A stretch of DNA of 64,000 nt from Alphaproteobacteria bacterium (GTDB taxonomy: Bacteria > Pseudomonadota > Alphaproteobacteria > M2410): positions 4,144 to 68,143 of the forward strand of contig JAUWTJ010000005.1 of assembly GCA_030614785.1 (NCBI GenBank), written 5' to 3'. The notes below the pieces were generated by a model, which made no database searches, was not told the origin of the DNA, and worked only from the letters and a program-made list of their open reading frames with translations. The translations under genes and the position numbers were made by a program. Shown here piece by piece: positions 16,596 through 51,340 of this stretch (position 1 is its first letter; each line of letters begins with the position of its first letter).

Positions 16596-17708
16596 TCAAG
16601 CCCCTGAAGTCCCGGTCTGAGCGCGGTGTCGCAGCAGCTGGTCTGCGAGAACAGACGCTACCATCGCTTCGCCGACAGGAACAGCCCGGATGTCGACGCA
16701 TGGGTCGTGGCGGCCTTTGGTGGCAGTTTTGGTCGCTTTTCCATCCCGCGTGATGCTGTCTACCGGCGTCAGAATGGATGAAGTAGGTTTTACGGCAAAT
16801 CGGGCGACGATGTCCTGACCTGACGAGATACCGCCGAGGATCCCGCCGGCATGATTGGACATGAACCGGGGTCCATCGTTGCCGGGCGTGATCGCATCGG
16901 CATTTTCTTCGCCGGTGAGGGCAGCCACTGCAAATCCGTCACCGATCTCAACGCCCTTGACCGCATTGATACTCATCAGACCCTGGGCGAGTTCGGTGTC
17001 AAGCTTGCCATAGACCGGCGCGCCGAGCCCGGCGGGTATACCTTCAGCGATAACTTCGATAACTGCGCCGCAGGACGAGCCGGCCTTGCGGATCCCGTCG
17101 AGATAGGTCTCCCATGTCTTTACCGCTTCTGCATCGGGGCACCAGAAAGGGTTGTCGCCGATAATGTCCCAGTCCCAATTGTCGCGATTGATCAGATGGG
17201 GTCCCATCTGCACCAGAGCGCCGCGGATGCGGACCTTGTCGCCAAGAATACTGGCAAGCACTTTGCGTGCAACCCCTCCGGCCGCCACGCGCATTGCCGT
17301 CTCGCGCGCCGAGGAGCGCCCGCCGCCGCGATAGTCGCGCAAGCCATATTTGGCTTCGTAGGTAATATCAGCATGGCCCGGACGGTAGGTGTCACGAATA
17401 TCATTGTAGTCTTTGGAACGTTGATCCTGGTTCTCGATGAGGAGCGAAATCGGTGTTCCTGTCGTGACCTGGCCGTTGGTACGGTCATCGGAAAAGACGC
17501 CGGAAAGGATTTTTACAGCATCATCTTCGCGGCGCTGGGTCACATATTTCGATTGCCCCGGCTTGCGTTTATCGAGCCAGACCTGAAGATCTTCCTCGCT
17601 CAGTGCGATGCCCGGCGGCGTGCCATCGACAACACACCCGATCGAGGGTCCATGGGACTCGCCCCATGTCGTAACCCGAAAAAGATGGCCAAAAGTGTTG
17701 TGAGACAT
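16596..17708 (-). CDS. aroC: Chorismate synthase
   Basis: Full-length AroC-like sequence (GESHGP..., RHDPCV blocks). Confidence 0.95.
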
Positions 17709-17719
17709 GGGCTTGCCGC

Positions 17720-18532
17720 CTATCCGACCGTGATATCAGGCGCGTCTTCGGCCTTCATACCGACCACGTGATATCCGGCATCCACATGATGAACCTCGCC
17801 GGTAACTGCAGCGCCCAGATCGGACAGCAAGTAAAGTGCTGAATTACCGACCTCCTCGATTGTCACGGTACGGCGTAGCGGTGAATTATATTCATTCCAT
17901 TTCAGAATATAACGAAAGTCGCCAATGCCCGAGGCTGCAAGCGTCTTGATCGGCCCTGCGGAAATCGCGTTAACACGAATATTCTGTTTCCCGAGATCCA
18001 TGGCAAGATAGCGCACACTTGTCTCAAGGGCAGCCTTCGCAACTCCCATGACATTGTAATGCGGCATGACCTTTTCGGCGCCGTAGTAGGTCAGCGTCAG
18101 CATGCTGCCGCCATCGCTCATCAGCTTCTCTGCCCGCAGCGCGACTGCAGTAAACGAGAAACACGAAATATTCATGGTCAGTTGAAAATTCTTGAAGCTC
18201 GTATCGACATAGCGGCCATCGAGCTCGTCCTTGTCGGAAAAGGCGATCGCATGGACGACAAAATCGAGCTTGCCCCAGGCTTCTTCAAGCGTGTGGAAGA
18301 CGGCGTCAATGCTGCCCTCGTCTGTCACGTCGCACGGAAGGATGATCTCGGAGCCAACAGATTCGGCCAGCGGCGTCACGCGTTTCTGGATGGCTTCGCC
18401 CTGATAGGTGAAGGCGAGTTCCGCTCCCGCCTTGTGTGCCGCTTCAGCGATGCCCCAGGCGATCGAGCGCTTGTTGGCCACGCCCATAATGAGCCCGCGC
18501 TTGCCTGCCATCAGATTTGGAAAGTCACTCAT
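17720..18532 (-). CDS. fabI: Enoyl-[acyl-carrier-protein] reductase (NADH)
   Basis: [14 protein letters not shown]-terminal motif, SDR fold with YxxxxxxK; start taken at MSDFPNL (ATG at 18532-18530). Confidence 0.9.
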
Positions 18533-27093: not shown

Positions 27094-27296
27094 ATCTGCT
27101 GCCGGCGAGAGATGCGGTAGACCCTTTGTGGCACCGACACCAATTGGCCAGACGGCAATAGAAGACTGAGAGTCTATTGATTTTTTGAACCCTGGCGGGA
27201 GACTGCCGGGCGTTTAGTGTCGTTTATACCTTTGAAATAATGGGATATTTATTGGTCGATTGGAAAAAAAGAGCCTCGCTGAATGAGTTTTCGCCC

Positions 27297-29222
27297 ATGA
27301 GTTTTCCGGGACATTTTCTGGATGAATTGCGCACCCGCCTGTCGATTACCGACGTGGTGGGCAAACGCGTGACGTGGGACCGGGCAAAATCCAATGCCCG
27401 GCGCAAGGATTACTGGGCCTGCTGTCCGTTTCATTCAGAAAAATCCCCCTCTTTCCATGTCGATGAAACCAAAGGGTTTTATCACTGCTTCGGCTGCGGC
27501 GCGCACGGCGACATTGTCGGGTTTGTCATGAGTCAGGATAATCTGTCCTTCATCGAGGCGGTCGAGCGGCTCGCCGGAGATGCCGGGATGACGATGCCCG
27601 AGCAAACGCCCCGGATGCGGGCAGAAGAAGAAAAGCGCGCCGGTCTCGTCGAGATCATGGAAATGGCAACGCAATTCTTTGAAAAAATTCTGCATCAGTC
27701 GAGCGGCGAGGTGGCCAGGAGCTATCTTGACGGGCGCGCCCTCAGTCCAAAAACCTGGGCCACCTTCCGCATCGGTTATGCACCCGATGCGCCTTCGGCT
27801 CTTTCGGACCATCTCATTGCGCAAGGCATCAAGCCGGACCAGTTGATAGAGGCCGGGCTTTCCCTTGAAAGCGACCGTGGCGGCCTGCGTGACCGGTTCC
27901 GGGGCCGCATTATTTTCCCCATCATGGATGGTCGCAGCCGCGTCATTGCTTTTGGCGGACGCGCGATGTCGTCTGAAGCCAAAGCCAAATATCTGAATTC
28001 ACCCGAGACGCCTTTGTTCCACAAGGGCCGTACCCTGTATAATATTGCGCCGGCGCGCCGCGCTGCTGCGGACCTGTCGCGCTCGGACAATGTGCACCGC
28101 CTGCCGGGCGTTGTTGTGGCCGAAGGCTATATGGATGTCATCGCATTGTCGCTGGCCGGCATCACGCAGTCGGTCGCACCGCTCGGCACCGCCATGACCG
28201 AAGAACAAATTCTGCTGGCCTGGAAGATGTGCCCCGAGCCTGTACTTTGTTTTGACGGCGATGCTGCCGGGATCAAGGCTGCGGGCCGGGCGATGGAACG
28301 TGCCTTGCCGCTGTTGCGTCCGGGACATTCGCTCGGGTTTGTATTGTTGCCAGGCGGCCTGGATCCGGATGACCTCATTCGCGAAAAGGGTTCCGAAGCC
28401 ATGCGGGCGATCCTGGCAAAGCCAATCCCGCTAATTGATTTTCTCTGGCGACGGGAGGTCGAAGAGGGTCCGTTTGATACGCCGGAGAAGCGTGCGGCTC
28501 TGGAAGAGCGGCTTGACTATGCAACAGGACAAATTCGCGATGACAAGGTTCAGCGGTTCTACCGCCAGGCTTTGCGCGACCGGCTCTACAAACATTTCAA
28601 CACACGCAAACCAACCGCAGCGGCATCGCGGCCAGGGCGCGGTGAAACTTTCGGACGTCCGAAACAGCCTCAGGGCATTTCAGCCGCGCTCAGAAAATCC
28701 TCTTTGGCCCAGGCCAGCAGACTGTCCGGCGGCCTGGGCGCAGGGCGTGATCTTGATCTTTGCGTGGAGCGGGAGCGGGTTCTGGTTTCGTCAATCTTGC
28801 GATTTCCTGAGCTCCTCGATGCCCATGGCGAGAGTTTCGCGGAAATGCCCCTTGAGCGTCCCGAACTTGACAGGGTAAGGCGGGATATTCTGGATGTTGC
28901 CGCCTCCGGCGTGGCGCTTGACATGAACGCGCTGCGCAACCATTTGAAGGATAGAGGCGCGACGCATCTGGTCGATCAATTGCTGCGCCATGCGGTCCAG
29001 AAGCACGCCCACATATTCAGTAAAGACGCACAGCTGAAAGACGCAGAAGAAAATTGGTCTCACGTCCTCGCGCTTCATCGCGAGATGCTCTCTTTGAAAC
29101 GAGAGGCAAAAGAGGCCGAGGTTCTGTTTCAACAAGATGGCAGTAGTGAGAATTGGCAGCGCCTGCAGCGAATTCAAACTCAGTTACAGCAGGCATCAGT
29201 CATTCAATCGGGAGACGGCTAG
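27297..29222 (+). CDS. dnaG: DNA primase
   Basis: Zinc ribbon CCPFHSEKSPSF...CFGCG, TOPRIM domain; the start aligns with the MSFPGHFLDEL N-terminus. Confidence 0.95.
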   Translation: MSFPGHFLDELRTRLSITDVVGKRVTWDRAKSNARRKDYWACCPFHSEKSPSFHVDETKGFYHCFGCGAHGDIVGFVMSQDNLSFIEAVERLAGDAGMTMPEQTPRMRAEEEKRAGLVEIMEMATQFFEKILHQSSGEVARSYLDGRALSPKTWATFRIGYAPDAPSALSDHLIAQGIKPDQLIEAGLSLESDRGGLRDRFRGRIIFPIMDGRSRVIAFGGRAMSSEAKAKYLNSPETPLFHKGRTLYNIAPARRAAADLSRSDNVHRLPGVVVAEGYMDVIALSLAGITQSVAPLGTAMTEEQILLAWKMCPEPVLCFDGDAAGIKAAGRAMERALPLLRPGHSLGFVLLPGGLDPDDLIREKGSEAMRAILAKPIPLIDFLWRREVEEGPFDTPEKRAALEERLDYATGQIRDDKVQRFYRQALRDRLYKHFNTRKPTAAASRPGRGETFGRPKQPQGISAALRKSSLAQASRLSGGLGAGRDLDLCVERERVLVSSILRFPELLDAHGESFAEMPLERPELDRVRRDILDVAASGVALDMNALRNHLKDRGATHLVDQLLRHAVQKHAHIFSKDAQLKDAEENWSHVLALHREMLSLKREAKEAEVLFQQDGSSENWQRLQRIQTQLQQASVIQSGDG

Positions 29223-29308
29223 CTTGAGTACGAGGCATCTTCGAAGTCATTGGACTTCAAGGGTGGACGAAGCTGTCGGATCAGGAAACTAAAGAGCGGA
29301 GATTAACC

Positions 29309-31882
29309 GTGGCGACCAAAGTAGCACAGACTAAAAAGACAGCCAAAAAGGTAGTGGCAAAGACGAAGACCGTTGCCAAAACAGCGACAAAGGCAGCCAC
29401 CAAAAAGGCCGCGCCAAAGACGGCAAAAAAAGCTGCGGCCAAAACAGCAGCGAAGCCTGCTGGCAAAAAAGTGGTTGCCAAAACGGCTGTTAAAACAGCG
29501 AAGAAATCAGTGACGAACACAAAAATAGCAACGAAAGTCAAAACTGCGGCAAAGACCGCAGTGAAAGCCGCCGCTCCGGTCGTCAAAAAGACGACCCAAA
29601 AGACTGCGAAGAAGGCGGCGGTAAAGGCAGCCCCCAAAACACCTAACAAAACAGCCAAAGCGGCTGCGGGCAAGAAAACCGCAACCAAAGCTCAGGAGAA
29701 AACGGCAAAAGTGGAAGTAGAGAGTAAGAAGAAGGCGGTTTCACAGAAAACGGCCACCAGGAAAACCGCCACCAAAAAAACGGTTGCCAAAAAAACTGCC
29801 ACCAAAAAAACAACCAAAGCAAAGGCTGAAGCGTCGGCGAAATCTCCCAAGGTCGCAAAAGGTGCAAGTGCCGAGAAAAGTCAAGTGGACGCGGCGGACC
29901 GCCCGCTACTCGATATGTCTGACAGCGGCGTCAAGAAGATGATCGCTGCAGCCAAGAAGCGCGGCTACGTCACCTATGATGAGCTGAACGAGGTTGTTCC
30001 GTCGGACGAGGTATCTTCTGAAAAGATTGAAGATATTATGTCGATGCTTTCTGAAATGGGCATCAATGTCATCGAAGCTGATGATGCTGAGGAAGTCGAA
30101 AGTGGTTCCGAGGCAGGGACAGACATTGCCACGAAAACCGGGACAGCGGTTACAGCCAAGCCCAAGCCGACCACCACCCTTGATCGCACGGACGATCCCG
30201 TCCGCATGTATCTGCGTGAAATGGGGACCGTTGAGTTGCTCTCGCGCGAAGGCGAGATTGCCATCGCCAAGCGCATTGAGGCCGGACGCGAAACCATGAT
30301 TGGCGGCCTGTGCGAAAGCCCGCTGACCTTTGAAGCAATTATCGTATGGCGCGACGAACTCAATGAAGGAAAAGTTCTTCTGCGTGAGATCATTGACCTC
30401 GACGCGACCTATGGCGCTGGCCCTGAAGGGCAAGCCAAGAAGCGTGCACTTGAGGCCGAGAATGCTGCCAACCTGGCAAAACTGACAGGCGATTCGCCCG
30501 GTGCCCCGGACGGGATTCCCGGCGCAAAACCGGCAGCTGAGCCTGGCAAGGAAGGTGAAGAAGGCGCGGCCAAAACTGAAGGCACCGATGACGATGATGC
30601 AGAGGAAGAAGCAACCTTGTCGCTTGCGGCAATGGAAGCAGCTCTGAAGCCTCAGGTCTTTGAGGAATTCGACCAGATCGCAGCAAGTTACAAGAAGCTT
30701 CGCAAACTGCAGGAAGCGCTCGTTGAGGCCGTCCTCAATAATCAGACCCTGACGCCAAGCCAGGAGCGTCGCTACAAGAAATTGAAGGCGGAGGTTATTG
30801 AATACGTCAAGAACCTGCACCTCAACAACAACCGGATCGAAGCGCTTGTCGATCAGCTCTATGGCATCAATCGTCGGATGGTATCCCTTGAAGGCAAACT
30901 GATGCGCATGGCCGACGCTCACGGCGTTCCTCGTCAGGAGTTCCTGAAGCAATATCTCAACAATGAGCTGGACCCACACTGGTCGCGCCGTGTGTCTCGT
31001 TTGGCCGGTCGGGGCTGGAAAGAATTCATCAAGGAAGAGAAAGATCAGGTCGACGAGATCCGTGAGGATATCCAGACTGTTTCTCAGGAAGTTGGCGTTG
31101 AGATCACCGAATTCCGCCGGATCGTAAACACAGTTCAAAAGGGCGAGCGCGAGGCACGCCAGGCCAAGAAGGAAATGGTCGAGGCCAATCTTCGTCTCGT
31201 GATTTCGATCGCCAAAAAATACACCAATCGCGGCCTCCAGTTCCTCGATCTCATTCAGGAAGGTAATATCGGCCTCATGAAAGCGGTCGACAAGTTTGAA
31301 TACCGTCGCGGTTACAAGTTCTCGACCTACGCCACATGGTGGATCCGTCAGGCAATTACCCGGTCCATCGCTGATCAGGCGCGCACGATCCGTATTCCGG
31401 TTCACATGATCGAGACCATCAACAAGCTGGTTCGCACCTCGCGGCAGATGCTGCATGAAATTGGCCGCGAACCAACACCGGAAGAGCTTTCAGAAAAGCT
31501 CGCCATGCCGCTCGAAAAAGTGCGCAAGGTTTTGAAGATTGCCAAGGAACCAATTTCTCTCGAGACGCCCATTGGTGATGAAGAAGACAGTCATCTGGGT
31601 GATTTCATCATGGACCCCAATGCGATCTTGCCAATTGACGCGGCCATTCAGTCCAATTTGAGAGAAACAACGACGCGGGTGCTCGCGTCCCTGACCGCAA
31701 GGGAGGAGCGTGTGCTGCGCATGCGTTTCGGTATAGGGATGAATACTGACCATACTTTGGAGGAAGTCGGTCAGCAGTTCTCGGTAACACGCGAACGTAT
31801 TCGTCAAATCGAGGCAAAGGCGCTGAGGAAACTCAAGCACCCGAGCCGGTCCCGTAAACTCAGGAGTTTCCTGGATAACTAA
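29309..31882 (+). CDS. rpoD: RNA polymerase sigma factor RpoD (sigma-70) with a Lys/Ala/Thr-rich, histone H1-like N-terminal insertion of about 185 aa
   Basis: Conserved regions 1.1 through 4.2 are present (PLLDMSD...YVTYDELN; [50 protein letters not shown]; ...[19 protein letters not shown]). The N-terminus begins MATKV as usual, but KTA/KKA repeats follow for about 185 residues before region 1.1. GTG start. Confidence 0.93.
29330..29880. repeat. Imperfect tandem coding repeats (AAA/AAG-ACN-GCN units) encoding the KA-rich segment of rpoD
   Basis: Visible periodic aaaac(a/g)gc(n) units; they generate a spurious antisense ORF at 29281-29688. Confidence 0.7.
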
Positions 31883-34107: not shown

Positions 34108-35172
34108 CTAGGCCGCCAGATCTCCAACATAGGAGGAGCGCGGCCGGATCAACCTGCCTGTGGTTTGCTGTTCGATGGCATGTGCCGTCCAGCCGACCGT
34201 GCGGCCAAGGCCAAAGACGCAGGTGAAGGTGCTGCGCGGGAACCCGAGCGCCTCCTGGAGAAGGGCTGTATAATACTCGACATTGGTTTCAAGCGGTCGG
34301 TCAGGTTTCCATTGGCGCAGCTGTGTCAGTATTTCGGTTTCCAGTCTTTCGGCGAACGCCAGACGGCCCTGGGTCTGGGGGAGGTCCCTGACTGCTTTCT
34401 TTAAAACCTCGGCACGCGGATCGCGGACCCGGTAGATCCTGTGGCCAAATCCCATCATGCGGCGACCGGATTCAAGTTCTTTCAGAATATAGCCACCTAC
34501 ATCGGGCGAGCTTTCAAGTTCATCCAGCAGGTCCAGCACCGGCCCCGGTGCTCCGCCATGAAGCGGTCCCTTGAGAGCGCAAAGTCCTGCAACGACAGAG
34601 GACACAAGACCGGCATCTGTCGAGGCAACGACCCGGGCCGCAAAGGTCGATGCGTTCATCCCGTGGTCTGCAACGGTGACAAGGTAGGCATCAAGGGCGG
34701 CGTGCTCTTCTGCTGTGGGGCTTTCGCCGCGTGCCATACGCAGGAAATCTTCTGCTGTCGACAGGGCAGCATCAGGCGCAATGAGAGCGCCGCCATTTTC
34801 CATACGGATGACCGCAGGCACAGCCACCGACATGGCCGCAAGACAAAGAAGATGTGGCGGCAGCTCATGCTCATCCGGCAGACTTGCCATCACCGCACGG
34901 ACACATTCAATCGGAGAAAGGCCTCTCAGGCCCGCCAGGATGGCCTCAACATGAGCAAAGATTTGAACACGAGCGGCCCCGAAATCTTTATCGCTACTGA
35001 CGTCGGCGAGCCCGCTCCAGAATTTTGGAACAAAGGTATCGAACGTGTCGCCTTCAACCCAGTCCTCGATGTCGCGGCCACGAACCACCAGGCGTCCGGC
35101 GTCTCCGTCCACCTTGCTGAGAATTGTTTCTACGGCGACGACGCCTTCCAGGCCTTCTTTGAATTCTGTCAT
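34108..35172 (-). CDS. Citrate synthase-family protein (short form, citryl-CoA lyase-like)
   Basis: Citrate-synthase catalytic blocks (HGGAPG..., GFGHRIYRVRDPRA). Confidence 0.8.
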   Translation of the reverse strand: MTEFKEGLEGVVAVETILSKVDGDAGRLVVRGRDIEDWVEGDTFDTFVPKFWSGLADVSSDKDFGAARVQIFAHVEAILAGLRGLSPIECVRAVMASLPDEHELPPHLLCLAAMSVAVPAVIRMENGGALIAPDAALSTAEDFLRMARGESPTAEEHAALDAYLVTVADHGMNASTFAARVVASTDAGLVSSVVAGLCALKGPLHGGAPGPVLDLLDELESSPDVGGYILKELESGRRMMGFGHRIYRVRDPRAEVLKKAVRDLPQTQGRLAFAERLETEILTQLRQWKPDRPLETNVEYYTALLQEALGFPRSTFTCVFGLGRTVGWTAHAIEQQTTGRLIRPRSSYVGDLAA

Positions 35173-35286
35173 ATCGTTCCTTTCGGTTGGTCCTTCAATT
35201 TGCCCGGACTAAACATTGACTTGACACATATCGTCAATCTTGATTTTATAAATCAATATAAAGTAATTGATCAACATGTGAGCTTG

Positions 35287-36522
35287 ATGGATAGAGAAGC
35301 TGAAAAGGGCGGATTACCGGTCTATTTGAATGCTCGGGAAGCGGCAGCGGAGCTCGATGTTTCGCTGGCGACGCTCTACGCCTACGTCAGCCGCGGACTT
35401 GTGCGCTCGGAAAATGTGGGGTCCAGCCGGGCCAAGCGGTATCGCGGAGATGATGTGCGGGCGCTGGTGGCGCGCCGCCGCCCGGCCCAGGCTGAAGAGC
35501 GCAAGAAGAATCGCGCTTTGAGCTGGGGTGCGCCGGTCATGGATTCTGCCATCACCTTGATCAGCGATGAAGGTCTTTATTACCGGGGGCGAAATGCCAT
35601 CGCGCTTGCCGAGGAAGCCAGCCTTGAGACGGTTGCAACCCTTCTGTGGCGTGCGACGACAAATCCGTTCACCGAGCAAAAGACGGGCCTTGGCGAAGAG
35701 ATCCTCAAAGCTTACGGGGATATCATGGCACCGCTCGGGGTCATCGAGCGTGGCATGACTTTGCTGCCAGCCCTTGCGCTCAGGGATCCTGGCGCTTTCA
35801 CCATGGCGGGCCCACCCGTCATGAAGGCCGGCGTTCGTCTCATGCGGGTTTTCGCCGCTGCTATTACAGATCGTCCGCTCGGTGACGATCCGCTCCACGA
35901 AGTGCTCACCCATGCCTGGGACCCTGAGGATAAAGGTGAAACGTCGGACCTCATTCGCCGCGCCCTCGTGCTATCAGCAGATCATGAGCTTAATGCGTCT
36001 ACGTTCACAGTGCGCTGTGTCGCCTCAACCGGCAGCAGCGTCTATTATGCTGTTGTTGCCGGCCTCGGCGCTATGAAAGGGTATCGACACGGCGGTATGA
36101 CGGCCAGCGCCTGGGCATTTCTTGAAGGAGCGGGTGCAGGGGACGTGGAAACTTTGGTTGCCGAGCGGTTGACCCGGGGCGAAGATATTCCCGGCTTTGG
36201 CCATCCGGTCTATGAAAACGGTGATCCCAGAGCGACAGCCCTGTTGGAAGCAATGGGCCGGCACGAGAGATACGCGCAGACGGCAGAGACTTTGAATGGT
36301 CTCATCGAGGTGGTGGCGAGTATGACCGGGCGCGCGCCCAATATTGATCTCATCCTTGCCGGAATTGCCCAAAAACTGGGTCTGGGGCCGGAGCCTGCCA
36401 TGGCGATCTTTGCGCTTGGAAGAACGGCCGGGTGGATTGCCCATGCGATTGAACAGGCGTCCTCGCGCCAGCTCATCCGCCCTCGCGCCCGCTACATTGG
36501 CGAGCCGATCAAGGCGTCTTGA
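35287..36522 (+). CDS. Citrate synthase-like protein with N-terminal helix-turn-helix (excisionase/MerR-type) DNA-binding domain
   Basis: N-terminus LNAREAAAELDVSLATLYAYVSRGLVRS is a typical HTH; the C-terminus has citrate-synthase blocks (GYRHGG, GFGHPVYENGDPRA). The annotated 693-aa ORF from 34441 is rejected because its first half is antisense to the neighbouring gene. Confidence 0.75.
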   Translation: MDREAEKGGLPVYLNAREAAAELDVSLATLYAYVSRGLVRSENVGSSRAKRYRGDDVRALVARRRPAQAEERKKNRALSWGAPVMDSAITLISDEGLYYRGRNAIALAEEASLETVATLLWRATTNPFTEQKTGLGEEILKAYGDIMAPLGVIERGMTLLPALALRDPGAFTMAGPPVMKAGVRLMRVFAAAITDRPLGDDPLHEVLTHAWDPEDKGETSDLIRRALVLSADHELNASTFTVRCVASTGSSVYYAVVAGLGAMKGYRHGGMTASAWAFLEGAGAGDVETLVAERLTRGEDIPGFGHPVYENGDPRATALLEAMGRHERYAQTAETLNGLIEVVASMTGRAPNIDLILAGIAQKLGLGPEPAMAIFALGRTAGWIAHAIEQASSRQLIRPRARYIGEPIKAS

Positions 36523-46567: not shown

Positions 46568-47044
46568 CTATATTTCTCGCGCAACAGATTTCCTCATCAG
46601 GATCATCGGCGCAGGCACATTCCCCGCTTCAAGACCTTCGAACCGGCGCACGTCATACCAGCCGTGAGCGATGTAGAAGGCGTGTGCATTGTCGTTTCCC
46701 TCAAGCACATCCAGATCGGCCTGGGGATGGGATGAAGCGATTTTCTCCTCGCCATGGGCCAGCAGCGCCCCACCGTAACCCTTGCGGGCGTAATCCGGAT
46801 GGATATGAAGGGACTCGATCTTGTTCTCGTGAACAAACAGAAATCCGGCCACTTCAATATCAACGACAGCAACGTCAAAATCCTGCCAGCAGGCCCTGAC
46901 AAACCGACCAGCTTCGTCGCCCTCATGGAAGGCATTCAGGGCCTCAGCCGGAACAATCACCGCCATTGTGCCCAGATAAGTCGCACGGTCAATCTCGATC
47001 AGCCGGTCAATCTCATTTTCTCGCGCGGCCCGGATCTCAGTCAT
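46568..47044 (-). CDS. GNAT-family N-acetyltransferase
   Basis: Acetyl-CoA binding motif (RKGYGGALLAHGEE) within a GNAT-like fold. Confidence 0.8.
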   Translation of the reverse strand: MTEIRAARENEIDRLIEIDRATYLGTMAVIVPAEALNAFHEGDEAGRFVRACWQDFDVAVVDIEVAGFLFVHENKIESLHIHPDYARKGYGGALLAHGEEKIASSHPQADLDVLEGNDNAHAFYIAHGWYDVRRFEGLEAGNVPAPMILMRKSVAREI

Positions 47045-47933
47045 TGCGGTAGATGCTGTCGATCCCCGGCTCGCCGTCGCAAGTCGCGCGGCCAGTTGCT
47101 ACCATATGTTGGAGATGGGCCAGCACAGACATGGCGGCGGGACGGTGGAGGCGTTCGTCTACATCGGCATACATGCGTTTTACCATGGTGCGAATATCGT
47201 TCAGGTCGTCGCGGATACAGTCCGCAATTTGTACCTCGCGGGCATGGCGGTGGGCGATGAATTCCTTGAGAAACGGCGCCGGGTCGCGAATGGCATCGCC
47301 GTGTGCCGGCCACAGAACCTTGTCGCCGCGCTCAACGAGGAGATCAAGGCTTTCCATGTAGGCTTTCATGTCACCATCAGGCGGCGAGATGACGCTGGTC
47401 GACCATCCCATGACATGATCGCCGGTGATCAGCCCCGCCTTGCCCGGCAGAGCGAAACACATATGATTGGACGTGTGACCAGGCGTAAAGACACATTCGA
47501 CTTCCCAATCGCCGCCCTGAATGACTTCGCCGTGGCTGATGGTGACATCAGGCACAAAGTCCATATCGCCGCCGGCCTCAACCTGGATGCCCGTGTCCAG
47601 CTTGCCGGACCCGTGCGGCCCGAAGGCCCAGGTCCTGGCGCCGGTTTTCTCCTTGAGCGGCCTGGCGGCAGGCGAGTGGTCCATGTGAGTGTGAGTAAGA
47701 AGAATGTGGCTGACCCTCTCGCCCTCAAGCGCCCGGGTCAGGGCTTCAAAGTGCGCGTCATTGAGCGGTCCCGGATCGACAACAGCAACATCACCGGACC
47801 CGATCACATAGGTGTTCGTCCCGTGGAATGTGAAGCCTCCGGGGTTTTCCACAACCATGCGGCGCAGGCCCGGGGCAACCTCGGCAAGCACGCCATATTC
47901 AAAAGTCATTTCCCGAACGAATGGAATGGCCAT
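47037..47933 (-). CDS. MBL-fold metallo-hydrolase
   Basis: THTHMDH motif. Confidence 0.85.
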   Translation of the reverse strand: MAIPFVREMTFEYGVLAEVAPGLRRMVVENPGGFTFHGTNTYVIGSGDVAVVDPGPLNDAHFEALTRALEGERVSHILLTHTHMDHSPAARPLKEKTGARTWAFGPHGSGKLDTGIQVEAGGDMDFVPDVTISHGEVIQGGDWEVECVFTPGHTSNHMCFALPGKAGLITGDHVMGWSTSVISPPDGDMKAYMESLDLLVERGDKVLWPAHGDAIRDPAPFLKEFIAHRHAREVQIADCIRDDLNDIRTMVKRMYADVDERLHRPAAMSVLAHLQHMVATGRATCDGEPGIDSIYRND

Positions 47934-48049
47934 AGCCAGATCTCCTTATTTTTGCCGCACTATAGGGGAGTTGGTCTGATCAGCAAACGGGCGACAGACC
48001 TTAAAGTGAGCGATCGGGCTCTTTGATGCGACTATTGACCGGAGTCTCA

Positions 48050-48237: not shown

Positions 48238-49224
48238 ATGGACAAGGCTTTTGAAGTTTTGTGGCGCATTATTGCTGGCGCCTCGCTTGTCGCGTTCGTC
48301 TCGCCGCCCTTCCTCTTTCTCTTTGGCGTGATCGATAGCTCCGCCCTTATGCTCTATCTCCAGCAAGTGGTTTCGGGTGTTGCCAATGGCTGCGTTTATG
48401 CGCTGGTCGCCCTGGGCATCGTGCTGATCTATAAGGCGACGGAGACGATCAATTTCGCGCAAGGCGAAATCCTGATGATCGGTGCGTTTCTTGCTTTCAC
48501 CTTTATCAATATTCTCGGTATGAATTTCTGGCTTGGTGCGCTGCTGGCCGCAGGTGGTACGGCGCTGGTCGGCATGGGCGTCGACCGGATCATCATTCGC
48601 CCCATGGTCGGTCAGCCGGCCTTTGCTATTGTTATGGTGACCATCGGCTTCGGTTTTGTTGCAAGGTCGGCCGTCTCTATGGTGCCAGGCTGGGGCACCG
48701 ACAGCTACGCCATTGAGCGTCCCTTCGCAGCGGACGTCTTCACCTGGGGTGAAATTGCGATCTCCTATGATCATGCGATGATTGTCGCGACAACGGTGGT
48801 CCTGTGTGCGGCGCTTTTTCTGTTCTTCCGTTATACAAAGCTCGGCATCGCCATGCAGGCCTCATCTCAAAATCAGCTCGCGGCCTATTACATGGGCATC
48901 CCGGTCAGACAAATCTTCACGCTGATCTGGGGCTTGTCGGCAGGGGTTGCCGGGCTCGCCGGGCTCATGCTTGCGCCCTTTACCTTCGTCCACACCAATA
49001 TGGGCATGGTTGTGTTCCGCGCCTTTCCGGCGGCGGTGCTTGGTGGCTTCGGATCGATCCCCGGTGCTATTGTTGGCGGGATCATTATCGGGATTGTCGA
49101 GAGCCTGTCCGGGTTTTATCTCGATGAAGGGATCAAGAATGTCGCTGCCTATGTCGTCCTCCTCCTCGTGCTGGTGCTAAAGCCCGAAGGTATCTTTGGT
49201 GTTGTCCACCGGAAGAAGGTGTGA
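48238..49224 (+). CDS. Branched-chain amino acid ABC transporter permease (LivH-like)
   Basis: LQQVVSGVANGCVYALVALG N-terminal signature of LivH-type permeases; start could be as late as 48349. Confidence 0.85.
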   Translation: MDKAFEVLWRIIAGASLVAFVSPPFLFLFGVIDSSALMLYLQQVVSGVANGCVYALVALGIVLIYKATETINFAQGEILMIGAFLAFTFINILGMNFWLGALLAAGGTALVGMGVDRIIIRPMVGQPAFAIVMVTIGFGFVARSAVSMVPGWGTDSYAIERPFAADVFTWGEIAISYDHAMIVATTVVLCAALFLFFRYTKLGIAMQASSQNQLAAYYMGIPVRQIFTLIWGLSAGVAGLAGLMLAPFTFVHTNMGMVVFRAFPAAVLGGFGSIPGAIVGGIIIGIVESLSGFYLDEGIKNVAAYVVLLLVLVLKPEGIFGVVHRKKV

Positions 49225-49234
49225 GGGTGAGCAT

Positions 49235-50506
49235 ATGAGATACCAGTTTAAAACCGAGTATATTCAGGACATCCGGTTGTTCCGCTGGGGCGGTGCGCGA
49301 GCCTTCTGGACGCTGCTCGGCGTCTATACACTCATTGTCGCCGGGCTCAACCTGTTCATGCCGGGCCAGATGACGGCACTTAATTGGGTCGGCCTTGGCG
49401 CGGTCTCTGCCGTTCTCTACACAGTTGTCGTGCGCAAGGTGGCGGGCGATGCCCTGTGGTACGGGCTCCTTGGCATTGTCGTCCTGACGGCTCCTTTTGT
49501 GCTGGATATCTATTTCGTCAGTCAGCTGACGCTTGTCTATATATACGCCATTGCCGGTGTCGGGCTCATGCTGCTTGTCGGGCAAGCCGGGCTTATTTCC
49601 CTTGGTCACGCGGCCTTTATGGCCTGCGGCGCCTATGTGGCTGCGATCATGAGCCAGCAGGGCTATGACCTTCTGGTGATACTGCCCGCTGCCGTTCTGA
49701 TCTCGGCGATGCTGGGGTTTATCGTTGGGCTTCCGGCCCTGCGCATGACCGGCATCTATCTTGGCTTTGCCACCTACGCTTTTGCCTATATTTTTGAAGA
49801 AGTGCTCGCCCGCGCCGACGGGCTCACCGGCGGCAACAATGGCATGCTTGTTGAAATGCCGCAGCTCTTCACCTTCCTTGACGGGGTGAAGATTGGCGGT
49901 CTGGAGCTTGGCCCCATTGTTATCGACAATGAAGTGAAACTCTATTTTCTCAGTCTCGCCCTTGTGGCTTTGACCATACTCGTGGGGATTAACATTCTGC
50001 GCTCGCCCACAGGCCGCGCGTTCTCTGCCATTCGCGATTCCGAAGTTGCAGCCGAAGCCCTGGGGGTCAATCTCGCCATATACAAGACAGCCGCTTTCGC
50101 GATTTCGGCGGGCATGGCCGGGCTCGCCGGTGCGCTCAATGCGTATTTCCTGTCCTATATTTTTCCCGAAGCGTTCACGATCCTGGTTTCGATTGAGCTT
50201 CTGGTGATGGTTCTCGTCGGAGGGCTCGGGTCGCCGCTTGGTGTTGTTTTTGGCGCGATATTCATCGTCATGGTGCCGGAAATGGTTGCCATCGCCAAGG
50301 ATATCCTGCCGCCTGCCATCGGCGAGCAACCAGGTCTTAAAAACGGTGTCTACGGATTGATCCTCATTCTCTTCCTCATCTTCGAGCCCCTCGGCATTCA
50401 TGGCTGGTGGCTCAAGGCCAAGACCTATTTCAATCTTTTTCCGCTTTACAAACAGGGTCTCTTCAAGCGGCAAAAGTCCTATATGGTCTCGGAACGGGAT
50501 CGATAG
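49235..50506 (+). CDS. Branched-chain amino acid ABC transporter permease (LivM-like)
   Basis: LivM-type polytopic permease; GAGGGTGAG ribosome-binding site. Confidence 0.85.
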   Translation: MRYQFKTEYIQDIRLFRWGGARAFWTLLGVYTLIVAGLNLFMPGQMTALNWVGLGAVSAVLYTVVVRKVAGDALWYGLLGIVVLTAPFVLDIYFVSQLTLVYIYAIAGVGLMLLVGQAGLISLGHAAFMACGAYVAAIMSQQGYDLLVILPAAVLISAMLGFIVGLPALRMTGIYLGFATYAFAYIFEEVLARADGLTGGNNGMLVEMPQLFTFLDGVKIGGLELGPIVIDNEVKLYFLSLALVALTILVGINILRSPTGRAFSAIRDSEVAAEALGVNLAIYKTAAFAISAGMAGLAGALNAYFLSYIFPEAFTILVSIELLVMVLVGGLGSPLGVVFGAIFIVMVPEMVAIAKDILPPAIGEQPGLKNGVYGLILILFLIFEPLGIHGWWLKAKTYFNLFPLYKQGLFKRQKSYMVSERDR

Positions 50507-50509
50507 GGG

Positions 50510-51340
50510 ATGCAAATGGCAAAATCAGATGCATTTCTGGAAGTTGACGACCTGGCCATTCACTTCGGCGGGATCAAGGCGGTCGACGGCGTCACCTTCT
50601 CCGTGAAGAAGGGCGAGGTCTATACCATCATCGGGCCGAACGGCGCCGGTAAATCCACCATCTTCAATCTCATTGGCCGGATCTATGACCCGACCCACGG
50701 GTCGGTTTCCTTTGAGGGCAAACGCATTTCCAGATTGCCGACCCACAAGATCGTCGGACGCGGCATCGCACGGACCTTTCAAAACATCGAGCTCTTCGAG
50801 ATGGCAACGGTGCTCGACAATATGTTGCTCGGGCGCCACGCGCATCTCGGCGCGGGTCTGCTGTCTCATATGGGCTTTTTCCCTCACGTGCGCCGTGAAG
50901 AGGAACGCCATCGCCATATGATTGAGGAAGTGATCGATTTCCTCGATCTGCAGCACTACCGCGACCAGCGGATCGCTGAATTGCCCTATGGCGTGCGCAA
51001 GGTCGTCGAGCTTGGCCGCGCCCTCGCGACAGAACCAAAGCTGCTGCTGCTTGATGAGCCCTCATCGGGCCTCAACGTCGAGGAGACCGAGGACATGGCG
51101 TTCTGGATCTCCGATATCCAGAGCATTCTCGGCATCACCGTTGTCATGGTCGAGCACGACATGACCCTCGTCAACGAGGTGTCGGATCGGGTTCTGGCGA
51201 TCAACTACGGCAAGGTCATCGCCGAAGGCACGCCTGAAGAAGTCCAGGTCCACCCGGAAGTCATCCGCGCCTATCTCGGCGGCGATGAAGATGAGCCTGC
51301 AGAGGGTCCAAAAGAGGGGGAGGGCGATGGCGAAGGATAA
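50510..51340 (+). CDS. ABC transporter ATP-binding protein (LivG-like)
   Basis: Walker A GPNGAGKST, ABC signature, and the LivG-type C-terminal extension; start may be the ATG at 50516. Confidence 0.9.
   Translation: MQMAKSDAFLEVDDLAIHFGGIKAVDGVTFSVKKGEVYTIIGPNGAGKSTIFNLIGRIYDPTHGSVSFEGKRISRLPTHKIVGRGIARTFQNIELFEMATVLDNMLLGRHAHLGAGLLSHMGFFPHVRREEERHRHMIEEVIDFLDLQHYRDQRIAELPYGVRKVVELGRALATEPKLLLLDEPSSGLNVEETEDMAFWISDIQSILGITVVMVEHDMTLVNEVSDRVLAINYGKVIAEGTPEEVQVHPEVIRAYLGGDEDEPAEGPKEGEGDGEG

Follow-up and report, generated by a model that had tools for sequence, protein, structure and literature searches.

The window analysed here, a 64-kb stretch (64,000 nucleotides) of contig JAUWTJ010000005.1 from an uncultured alphaproteobacterium, contains an rpoD gene in which an otherwise complete primary sigma factor is preceded by a long N-terminal tail rich in lysine, alanine and threonine (Table 1). 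The original prediction, made from the sequence of the window, had described a primary sigma factor with a MATK N-terminus, a polycationic block and then a canonical region 1.1, and all three lie where it had placed them; the protein begins MATKVAQT, and the stretch ending in YVTYDELN comprises residues 199-227. All six Pfam domains of group-1 sigma factors are recovered above their gathering thresholds, with region 1.2 at residues 296-328, the non-conserved region (NCR) at 338-591, and regions 2, 3 and 4 at 623-693, 702-777 and 791-844, respectively. The NCBIfam RpoD equivalog model NF004208 scores 922 bits (cutoff 555) over residues 187-857, and the closest solved chain, 7ye1_F (deposited as RpoD, 652 aa, and which we take to be Caulobacter RpoD), aligns through its residues 7-652 with residues 186-857 of the query. 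As this alignment begins only at residue 186, approximately 185 N-terminal residues are extra.

The gene is embedded in a housekeeping context, dnaG-rpoD-panD, with panD directly 3' of it, and the dnaG-rpoD order is also present in 8 related contigs. The RpoD core is 70-75% identical to those of Roseibium, Parvibaculaceae, Pyruvatibacter and Methyloligellaceae. On sequence grounds, the set of Pfam domains, the NF004208 score, the 7ye1_F alignment and the dnaG-rpoD synteny in relatives together identify the protein as a genuine housekeeping sigma factor, RpoD.

Table 1. Features of the rpoD locus, in positions of the 64-kb window
Feature	Position	Strand	Basis
rpoD, complete coding sequence, 857 aa + stop	29309..31882	+	Open reading frame (ORF) list, NCBIfam match; public protein P0001 identical
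rpoD GTG start codon	29309..29311	+	Conserved in all nine sequences compared
Invariant block AGAGCGGAGATT with Shine-Dalgarno (SD) GGAG (29298-29301), 7 nt from the start codon	29293..29304	+	Identical in 9/9 sequences
Polycationic lysine-repeat tail, residues 9-197, K/A/T-rich, net ~+51, predicted disordered	29333..29899	+	Composition, AlphaFold2 (AF2), dN/dS, charge simulation
Conserved less basic island in tail, residues 124-141 (18 aa)	29678..29731	+	Near-invariant in 7/8 aligned relatives; flanks diverge
Single real DNA tandem array, 15 bp x ~5, (K)KTATK-type pentapeptides, residues 146-170	29744..29821	+	Tandem Repeats Finder (TRF); repeat family D4
Sigma-70 region 1.1, residues 204-264, folded, acidic	29918..30100	+	Pfam PF03979, E = 9e-22
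RpoD regions 1.2, NCR, 2, 3 and 4	30194..31840	+	Pfam PF00140, PF04546, PF04542, PF04539, PF04545
dnaG (primase), directly 5' of rpoD	27240..29222	+	ORF; relatives' upstream gene with Pfam Zn_ribbon_DnaG, DNAG_N, Toprim
Spurious antisense ORF, 135 aa	29281..29688	-	ORF list; codon composition of tail

Composition and predicted structure of the tail

Residues 6-197 consist of 29.7% lysine, 27.1% alanine, 17.2% threonine and 9.4% valine, with aspartate and glutamate together at 3.6%; proline amounts to 3% in the tails of the window clade. This segment has a net charge of +51 and an isoelectric point (pI) of 10.8, against a net charge of -14 for the other 660 residues, and because of it the complete protein has a pI of 9.6 instead of ~5.5. 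Repeated peptide 4-mers number 51 in the tail and 22.7 +/- 4.2 in residue shuffles (0 of 1000 shuffles reach 51), and there is no second stretch of such composition in all six frames of the window. Composition, charge and a repetitiveness beyond chance thus bear out the Lys/Ala/Thr-rich block of about 185 residues that had been predicted. The spacing from one lysine to the next is mostly 4 (KxxxK, 22 times) or 1 (KK, 14 times), KTAKK and KTATK are the most frequent words, and 29 lysine-repeat units of the type K1-2(A/T/N)3-5 can be recognized.

Under the general pattern of Strzalka et al. 2017, namely at least five successive units of 1-3 K/R with 2-9 neutral residues in between, the tail contains runs of 13 units (residues 20-75), 12 units (78-129) and 6 units (140-169), with none in the remaining protein. 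The same study also applies a composition filter, under which lysine must reach 10% and alanine 27% of the repeat region. Lysine makes up 29.4% of residues 1-197, and alanine stands exactly at the 27% filter, being 26.9% over residues 1-197 or 27.1% over residues 6-197.

In an AF2 model built on a 28-sequence alignment, residues 1-195 have a predicted local distance difference test (pLDDT) score of 27-33 and no secondary structure, and region 1.1 beside them is confidently folded and helical (pLDDT ~75-86). The segment of region 1.1 from residue 198 to 264 has a net charge of -10. The tail is hence predicted to be an intrinsically disordered polycation fused directly to the N-terminus of an intact region 1.1. 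The conserved island within it holds the sole glutamate cluster of the tail, and may represent a short interaction motif inside the disordered region.

Translation of the tail

For comparison with the window we used eight related loci, from NCBI metagenome-assembled genomes (MAGs), Logan assemblies of five runs and two Joint Genome Institute (JGI) metagenomes, which makes nine sequences in total. The arrangement AGAGCGGAGATT-N4-GTG-GCN-ACC-AAR is invariant in all nine of them, and the spacer farther upstream diverges. Eight of the nine keep the frame open across several indels and encode full-length proteins of 835-868 aa, the relatives being 88-100% identical, and the other two sense frames across the tail contain 7 and 5 stops. 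The ninth sequence, L078, has a single frameshift in one short-read assembly (Logan SRR3577079 contig, L078:1349-3929), which splits rpoD into ORFs of 230 aa and 642 aa and sets the tail apart from the core; this is probably an assembly error, likeliest an indel in an A-rich run. The MATK N-terminus is common to tail-less homologues, such as a Methyloligellaceae protein (MATKAAQTEEREASGGESQDGPLLDMSD, locus L005). The first in-frame ATG encodes M203 (29915), which is without an upstream SD and lies inside a conserved PLLD(M/L)SD motif where most homologues have leucine, and both the NF004208 match and the homologue alignments start upstream of it.

Translation of the tail from the upstream GTG is strongly supported, at the level of comparative sequence analysis, by the invariant SD/GTG, the frames that remain open despite indels, and the dN/dS values and charge conservation described below. 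The original prediction had named a downstream start that leaves the repeat untranslated, or an assembly artefact, as what would undo it. The same evidence speaks against the former, and the presence of the tail in at least nine independent assemblies speaks against the latter.

The gene calls for the JGI proteins P0008 and P0009 (L076:1501 and L077:1501) begin 19-28 codons upstream of the conserved SD/GTG (LRNGTGKGK... and MCIGNNERK...), the call in L076 reaching back to the end of dnaG. The dnaG-rpoD spacer itself (29223-29308) contains a hairpin, GAAGTC-ATTG-GACTTC, at ~29243-29258, the pairing of which is kept by compensatory changes in relatives (GAAGCC..GGCTTC in L075; AAGG..CCTT in L076 and L078). 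It has no T-run after it and is hence not a terminator of the classical type; it could have a role in processing or regulation between the two genes.

Selection on the tail

The ratio of nonsynonymous to synonymous substitution rates (dN/dS), calculated by the Nei-Gojobori method, is 0.19-0.65 in the tail and 0.02-0.04 in the core, and is below 1 in every pair. Constraint on the sequence of the tail is thus about ten-fold looser than on the core, and its length drifts via small in-frame indels. Yet tails that differ at 34-50% of aligned nucleotides have a net charge of +47 to +56 and a lysine content of 29-33% in all eight aligned relatives. We simulated neutral evolution by mutating the tail of the window to the observed divergence, with 500 replicates per target. 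The simulated tails retained net charges of just +19.6 +/- 6.3 and +12.8 +/- 6.4 (maxima 40 and 33) and acquired a mean of 4.6-6.0 stop codons, with 0.2% of replicates remaining stop-free. As the observed charge, lysine content and open frame exceed those of the neutral simulation, selection keeps the reading frame of the tail and its high positive charge and composition, rather than its exact sequence.

Repeats at the DNA level and antisense reading frames

The original prediction had characterized the DNA of the tail as an imperfect tandem repeat, which holds only weakly and is overstated except for the single array in Table 1. TRF reports just two small arrays, at 29421-29452 (15 bp x 2.1) and at 29745-29811 (15/30 bp x 4.5/2.2), the latter overlapping the four copies of repeat family D4 at 15-nt spacing; the indels of L001, L075 and L076 adjoin this array. 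Repeat families in the tail DNA are only 60-80% identical, and enrichment relative to codon shuffles is modest for repeated 9-mers (38 versus 20; 6/1000) and absent for repeated 12-mers. The tail is therefore a degenerate lysine repeat at the peptide level without a regular DNA array, and a regular DNA tandem repeat as its driver was rejected on the basis of TRF, repeat families and k-mers, bar the one array of 15 bp x ~5.

The long spurious antisense ORF that had been attributed to the repeat is present, and long antisense stretches free of stops lie opposite the tail in several frames and in all relatives. They are a compositional by-product, because the reverse complements of AAR, GCN, ACN and GTN are never stop codons. 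Opposite the conserved rpoD core there is another stop-free antisense ORF (29906..31456, minus strand, 516 aa), which we treat as mechanical, and long overlapping pairs of ORFs on opposite strands are seen at 16596-17771, 34108-36522, 47037-48026 and 49133-50515. Such pairs probably represent shadow ORFs of the sort expected in moderately GC-rich DNA. Tails of the present kind cause trouble in annotation, in the form of mis-called starts, genes split by frameshifts in short-read assemblies and spurious antisense ORFs.

Distribution among primary sigma factors

In species-representative genomes, region 1.1 of RpoD is preceded in the nearest named Alphaproteobacteria by a leader of ~30 aa, the net charge of which is -5 to -8; genera and families of this kind include Roseibium, Methyloligellaceae, Parvibaculaceae, Enterovirga and Flaviflagellibacter. 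With respect to these neighbors the tail is lineage-specific, and it is variable in length among relatives (proteins of 835-868 aa), both of which the original prediction had proposed to check. Among the best 120 database homologues, most are 770-890 aa long and have K/A-rich segments of 110-360 aa, often rich in proline, before region 1.1; the named carriers among these 120 are Rhizomicrobium MAGs. That search is biased to sequences sharing words with the tail, and we hence also searched representatives of 50%-identity clusters with the core only. Of the 62 representatives with an anchored region 1.1, 19 have at least 80 aa ahead of it, and about a dozen of these segments are strongly cationic, one of them in the RpoD of the cultured Comamonas odontotermitis (WP_224149603.1, 821 aa). 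Pfam confirms the combination of a tail with an intact region 1.1 in Comamonas odontotermitis, in one Rhizomicrobium and in two further proteins. A homologue search with residues 1-270 yielded only metagenome RpoD fragments, and no additional named cultured carriers.

In an admittedly crude neighbor-joining tree of the cores, tailed and tail-less clades are interleaved, and the sister group of the window clade (tails of 187-229 aa) consists of proteins whose leaders are 36 aa long. Because tail-less clades lie between tailed ones on this core-only tree, it suggests that tails were repeatedly gained or lost. The recurrence of K-rich tails before an intact region 1.1 in many clades scattered among tail-less ones in turn argues for some utility of the tail. 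The tail is less unusual than the original prediction implied, as comparable ones are found in most of the best 120 homologues, in Comamonas and in about a dozen 50%-identity clusters. Moreover, lysine repeats in HrdB and Bordetella pertussis RpoD had already been noted (PMC5714199). Lysine-repeat extensions on primary sigma factors are thus a known kind, of which the window clade is an unusually highly charged example.

Proposed role of the tail

Region 1.1 is the textbook acidic mimic of DNA that gates the polymerase channel, and the attachment of a +51 polycation to it presents an electrostatic paradox. The tail probably does something for transcription, given that selection preserves its charge and that comparable tails have been acquired or lost more than once. 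The lysine-repeat tail of ~190 residues replaces, or is an expansion of, the short acidic N-terminal leader usual in RpoD. By analogy with other lysine-repeat proteins, we consider it fairly probable that it tethers the protein electrostatically to nucleic acid, irrespective of sequence. The effects on promoter search and phase separation that the original prediction put forward would likewise be hypotheses. In RNA polymerase, region 1.1 lodges in the main channel until open-complex formation drives it out toward downstream DNA; as the tail is carried by a region that moves in this direction, it could act on the nucleoid or on downstream DNA. A flexible polycation of this type could retain the holoenzyme, and perhaps sigma on its own, at the nucleoid and thereby favor the search for promoters or the recycling of sigma. 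It could also stabilise initiation complexes by clamping duplex DNA, downstream or flanking, and may in addition offset the acidic, DNA-mimicking region 1.1.

Several observations weigh against this proposal. The case for putative DNA binding by the tail draws on composition and analogy, and the tail matches no DNA-binding family profile in Pfam or NCBIfam and no solved structure. The RpoDs of sister clades (P0015/P0016, Pyruvatibacter and Roseibium) are tail-less, and the tail is hence dispensable for sigma function in general. The dN/dS of 0.3-0.65 in the closest pairs implies loose constraint on the sequence itself. Core charge is equal in tailed and tail-less homologues (-15.6 versus -15.4), and there is thus no sign of a co-evolved intramolecular charge pairing; the idea of a compensating, more acidic core in tailed RpoDs was rejected for the same reason. 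Lastly, RNA, polyphosphate or acidic proteins would be equally plausible ligands for a polycation.

The last point leads to an alternative that we hold to be unlikely, wherein the tail acts mainly on something other than DNA: its ligand might be RNA or polyphosphate, or it might form condensates or store sigma during starvation, fold back on the acidic region 1.1, linker or NCR loop so as to tune autoinhibition and core binding, or serve as a platform for lysine acetylation. The disorder of the tail and its position beside acidic segments, namely residues 198-264 and the NCR loop (residues 394-436, net charge -11), are compatible with such roles, and lysine repeats are reportedly linked with polyphosphate-binding proteins (PMC12345225). 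Nevertheless, tailed cores are no more acidic than tail-less ones, nothing in the window suggests a dedicated partner, and the closest lysine-repeat tails studied by experiment act on DNA. The NCR loop is itself a side feature of this protein: it starts with GDSPGAPDG (30488-30616) and is predicted to be disordered, with an AF2 pLDDT below 50.

It is rather improbable that the tail is merely tolerated low-complexity sequence, which slippage in A-rich, lysine-coding DNA expanded from a short MATKxAKKK seed and which does no harm on the solvent-exposed N-terminus of region 1.1. Short homologues do bear small K-rich seeds (e.g. MATKTAAKKKTT and MARQAAKKKTAS), tail length is continuous among clades from 60 to 360 aa, strain-level indels sit at repeat units, and the loose sequence constraint and the tail-less sister clades would be expected under such a scenario. 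Against it, neutral drift would halve or quarter the charge and add about five stops, but charge, lysine content, low D/E and frame are all retained, with dN/dS below 1 in every pair; the DNA is too little repetitive for ongoing slippage to restore the composition, 12-mers being unenriched, and the tail includes a conserved island. That the repeat region lies outside the protein, as the untranslated leader of a sigma factor starting at the Met before region 1.1 or as an assembly artefact, is highly improbable and effectively refuted: the ATG at residue 203, the split gene of L078 and the other starts picked by gene callers for P0008 and P0009 might favor it, but the invariant SD and GTG, a MATK start shared with tail-less RpoDs, a frame open in 8 independent assemblies from different samples, the selective signature of the tail, the setting of M203 in a motif that mostly has Leu, the RpoD profile match from residue 187 and the restriction of the frameshift to one event in one short-read assembly contradict it.

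A bolder version of the tether proposal would make the housekeeping sigma a nucleoid-bound, histone-like protein, its ~50 charges overriding the autoinhibition by region 1.1 so that free sigma or holoenzyme coats or condenses DNA (or polyphosphate or RNA) independently of promoters. We give this little credence, but were it true, there would be a DNA-resident pool of sigma, with a promoter search and a sigma cycle unlike the E. coli paradigm, and the repeated independent gains in Alphaproteobacteria, Betaproteobacteria and Actinobacteria would mark a general, unrecognised layer of transcription organisation. The window clade offers a clean natural comparison between tailed proteins and sister clades with a leader of ~30-36 aa.

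Relationship to known systems

Some family assignments could be set aside. MzaA, the sigma factor of the MZA anti-phage system (NCBIfam NF041931), was rejected with 411 bits against a cutoff of 800 and in view of the housekeeping neighborhood. The NF041931 profile aligns with residues 32-857 (window 29309-31879), much of the tail included, and this alignment hints at a long N-terminal region in the MzaA model too. A scan of the 64-kb window with Rfam at gathering thresholds gave no match, and hence no rRNA by which to place the organism. With the tail alone, no Pfam-A family was found at E <= 10 and no NCBIfam family at E <= 0.1, and a comparison with solved chains in the PDB gave no significant match, the best being an unrelated chain at E = 0.31. 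Membership of the histone H1/H5, Hc1 or HC2 families was hence rejected; a precomputed match to PF07382 (HC2) exists for the homologue P0013 only. The likeness to histone H1, AlgP or Hc1 that had been proposed thus stands as regards composition, and falls as regards homology. The resemblance to H1-type tails is, as far as profile and structure comparisons indicate, compositional and convergent. Within the full-text library searched, no study turned up that deals with a lysine-rich tail ahead of an intact region 1.1, and none that does so in Alphaproteobacteria.

The C-terminal tail of eukaryotic linker histone H1, chlamydial Hc1/Hc2, Pseudomonas AlgP, and the H1-like domains of DdbA and CarD are all K/A-rich disordered polycations which bind or condense DNA non-specifically, and the tail described here has the same general character. 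It is T-rich and P-poor, unlike H1 and AlgP, which are typified by S/TPKK and KPAA motifs. DdbA and CarD, like sigma, are RNA-polymerase-associated factors bearing a polycationic module. In the case of CarD, an RNA-polymerase-associated factor carrying an H1-like module, the H1-like domain of the myxobacterial protein was reportedly described by Garcia-Heras et al. in 2009 (title cited in PMC8156234). In Streptomyces DdbA, H1-like repeats that bind and condense DNA are coupled to a DksA-like modulator of RNA polymerase (PMC3643593).

Among sigma factors, functional data on N-terminal extensions concern only the non-homologous one of M. tuberculosis. In M. tuberculosis sigma A, the disordered N-terminal extension (205 aa) is essential, and its deletion cuts the Vmax of steady-state transcription ~100-fold (PMC10011835; PMC11888270). 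It substitutes for region 1.1, to which it is described as non-homologous (PMC11888270). Like M. tuberculosis SigA (residues 1-205) and Streptomyces HrdB, the protein studied here is a housekeeping sigma factor with a long, disordered and partly basic N-terminal extension; unlike SigA, it has kept a canonical region 1.1 (204-264), with the tail added upstream. An actinobacterial-type sigma A/HrdB extension replacing region 1.1 was rejected on account of the presence of Sigma70_r1_1 at 204-264. The SigA extension of M. tuberculosis also contains long acidic stretches.

The closest counterparts of the tail are the lysine repeats of Strzalka et al. 2017, which bind DNA and make Streptomyces TopA more processive (PMC5714199). 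Such repeats are over-represented in DNA-binding proteins, and their carriers include TopA, HupS, FtsK, HrdB, B. pertussis RpoD and C. crescentus TopA (PMC5714199). As in those tails, one or two lysines are spaced by 3-5 neutral A/T residues in a disordered polycation attached to a protein of DNA transactions. The present tail lies at the N-terminus of a sigma factor, whereas that of Streptomyces TopA lies at the C-terminus of a topoisomerase, and the trait was linked to GC-rich genomes, whereas the host here is an alphaproteobacterium of 56% GC. The carrier for which DNA binding has been assayed is TopA, and for sigma tails it would be a prediction. Finally, the RpoDs of Comamonas odontotermitis and of Rhizomicrobium MAGs (748-802 aa) have the same architecture, a basic low-complexity tail followed by Sigma70_r1_1, r1_2, NCR, r2, r3 and r4, and are annotated plainly as RpoD. 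These tails cannot be aligned with one another or with the tail of the window, and they differ in character. The Rhizomicrobium tails are K/A/P-rich (P 11-17%, T ~5%), with a net charge of +17 to +25, and the Comamonas tail is interrupted by an acidic segment and has a net charge of +15, whereas the tail of the window clade is K/A/T-rich, has 3% proline and carries +51 over ~190 aa.

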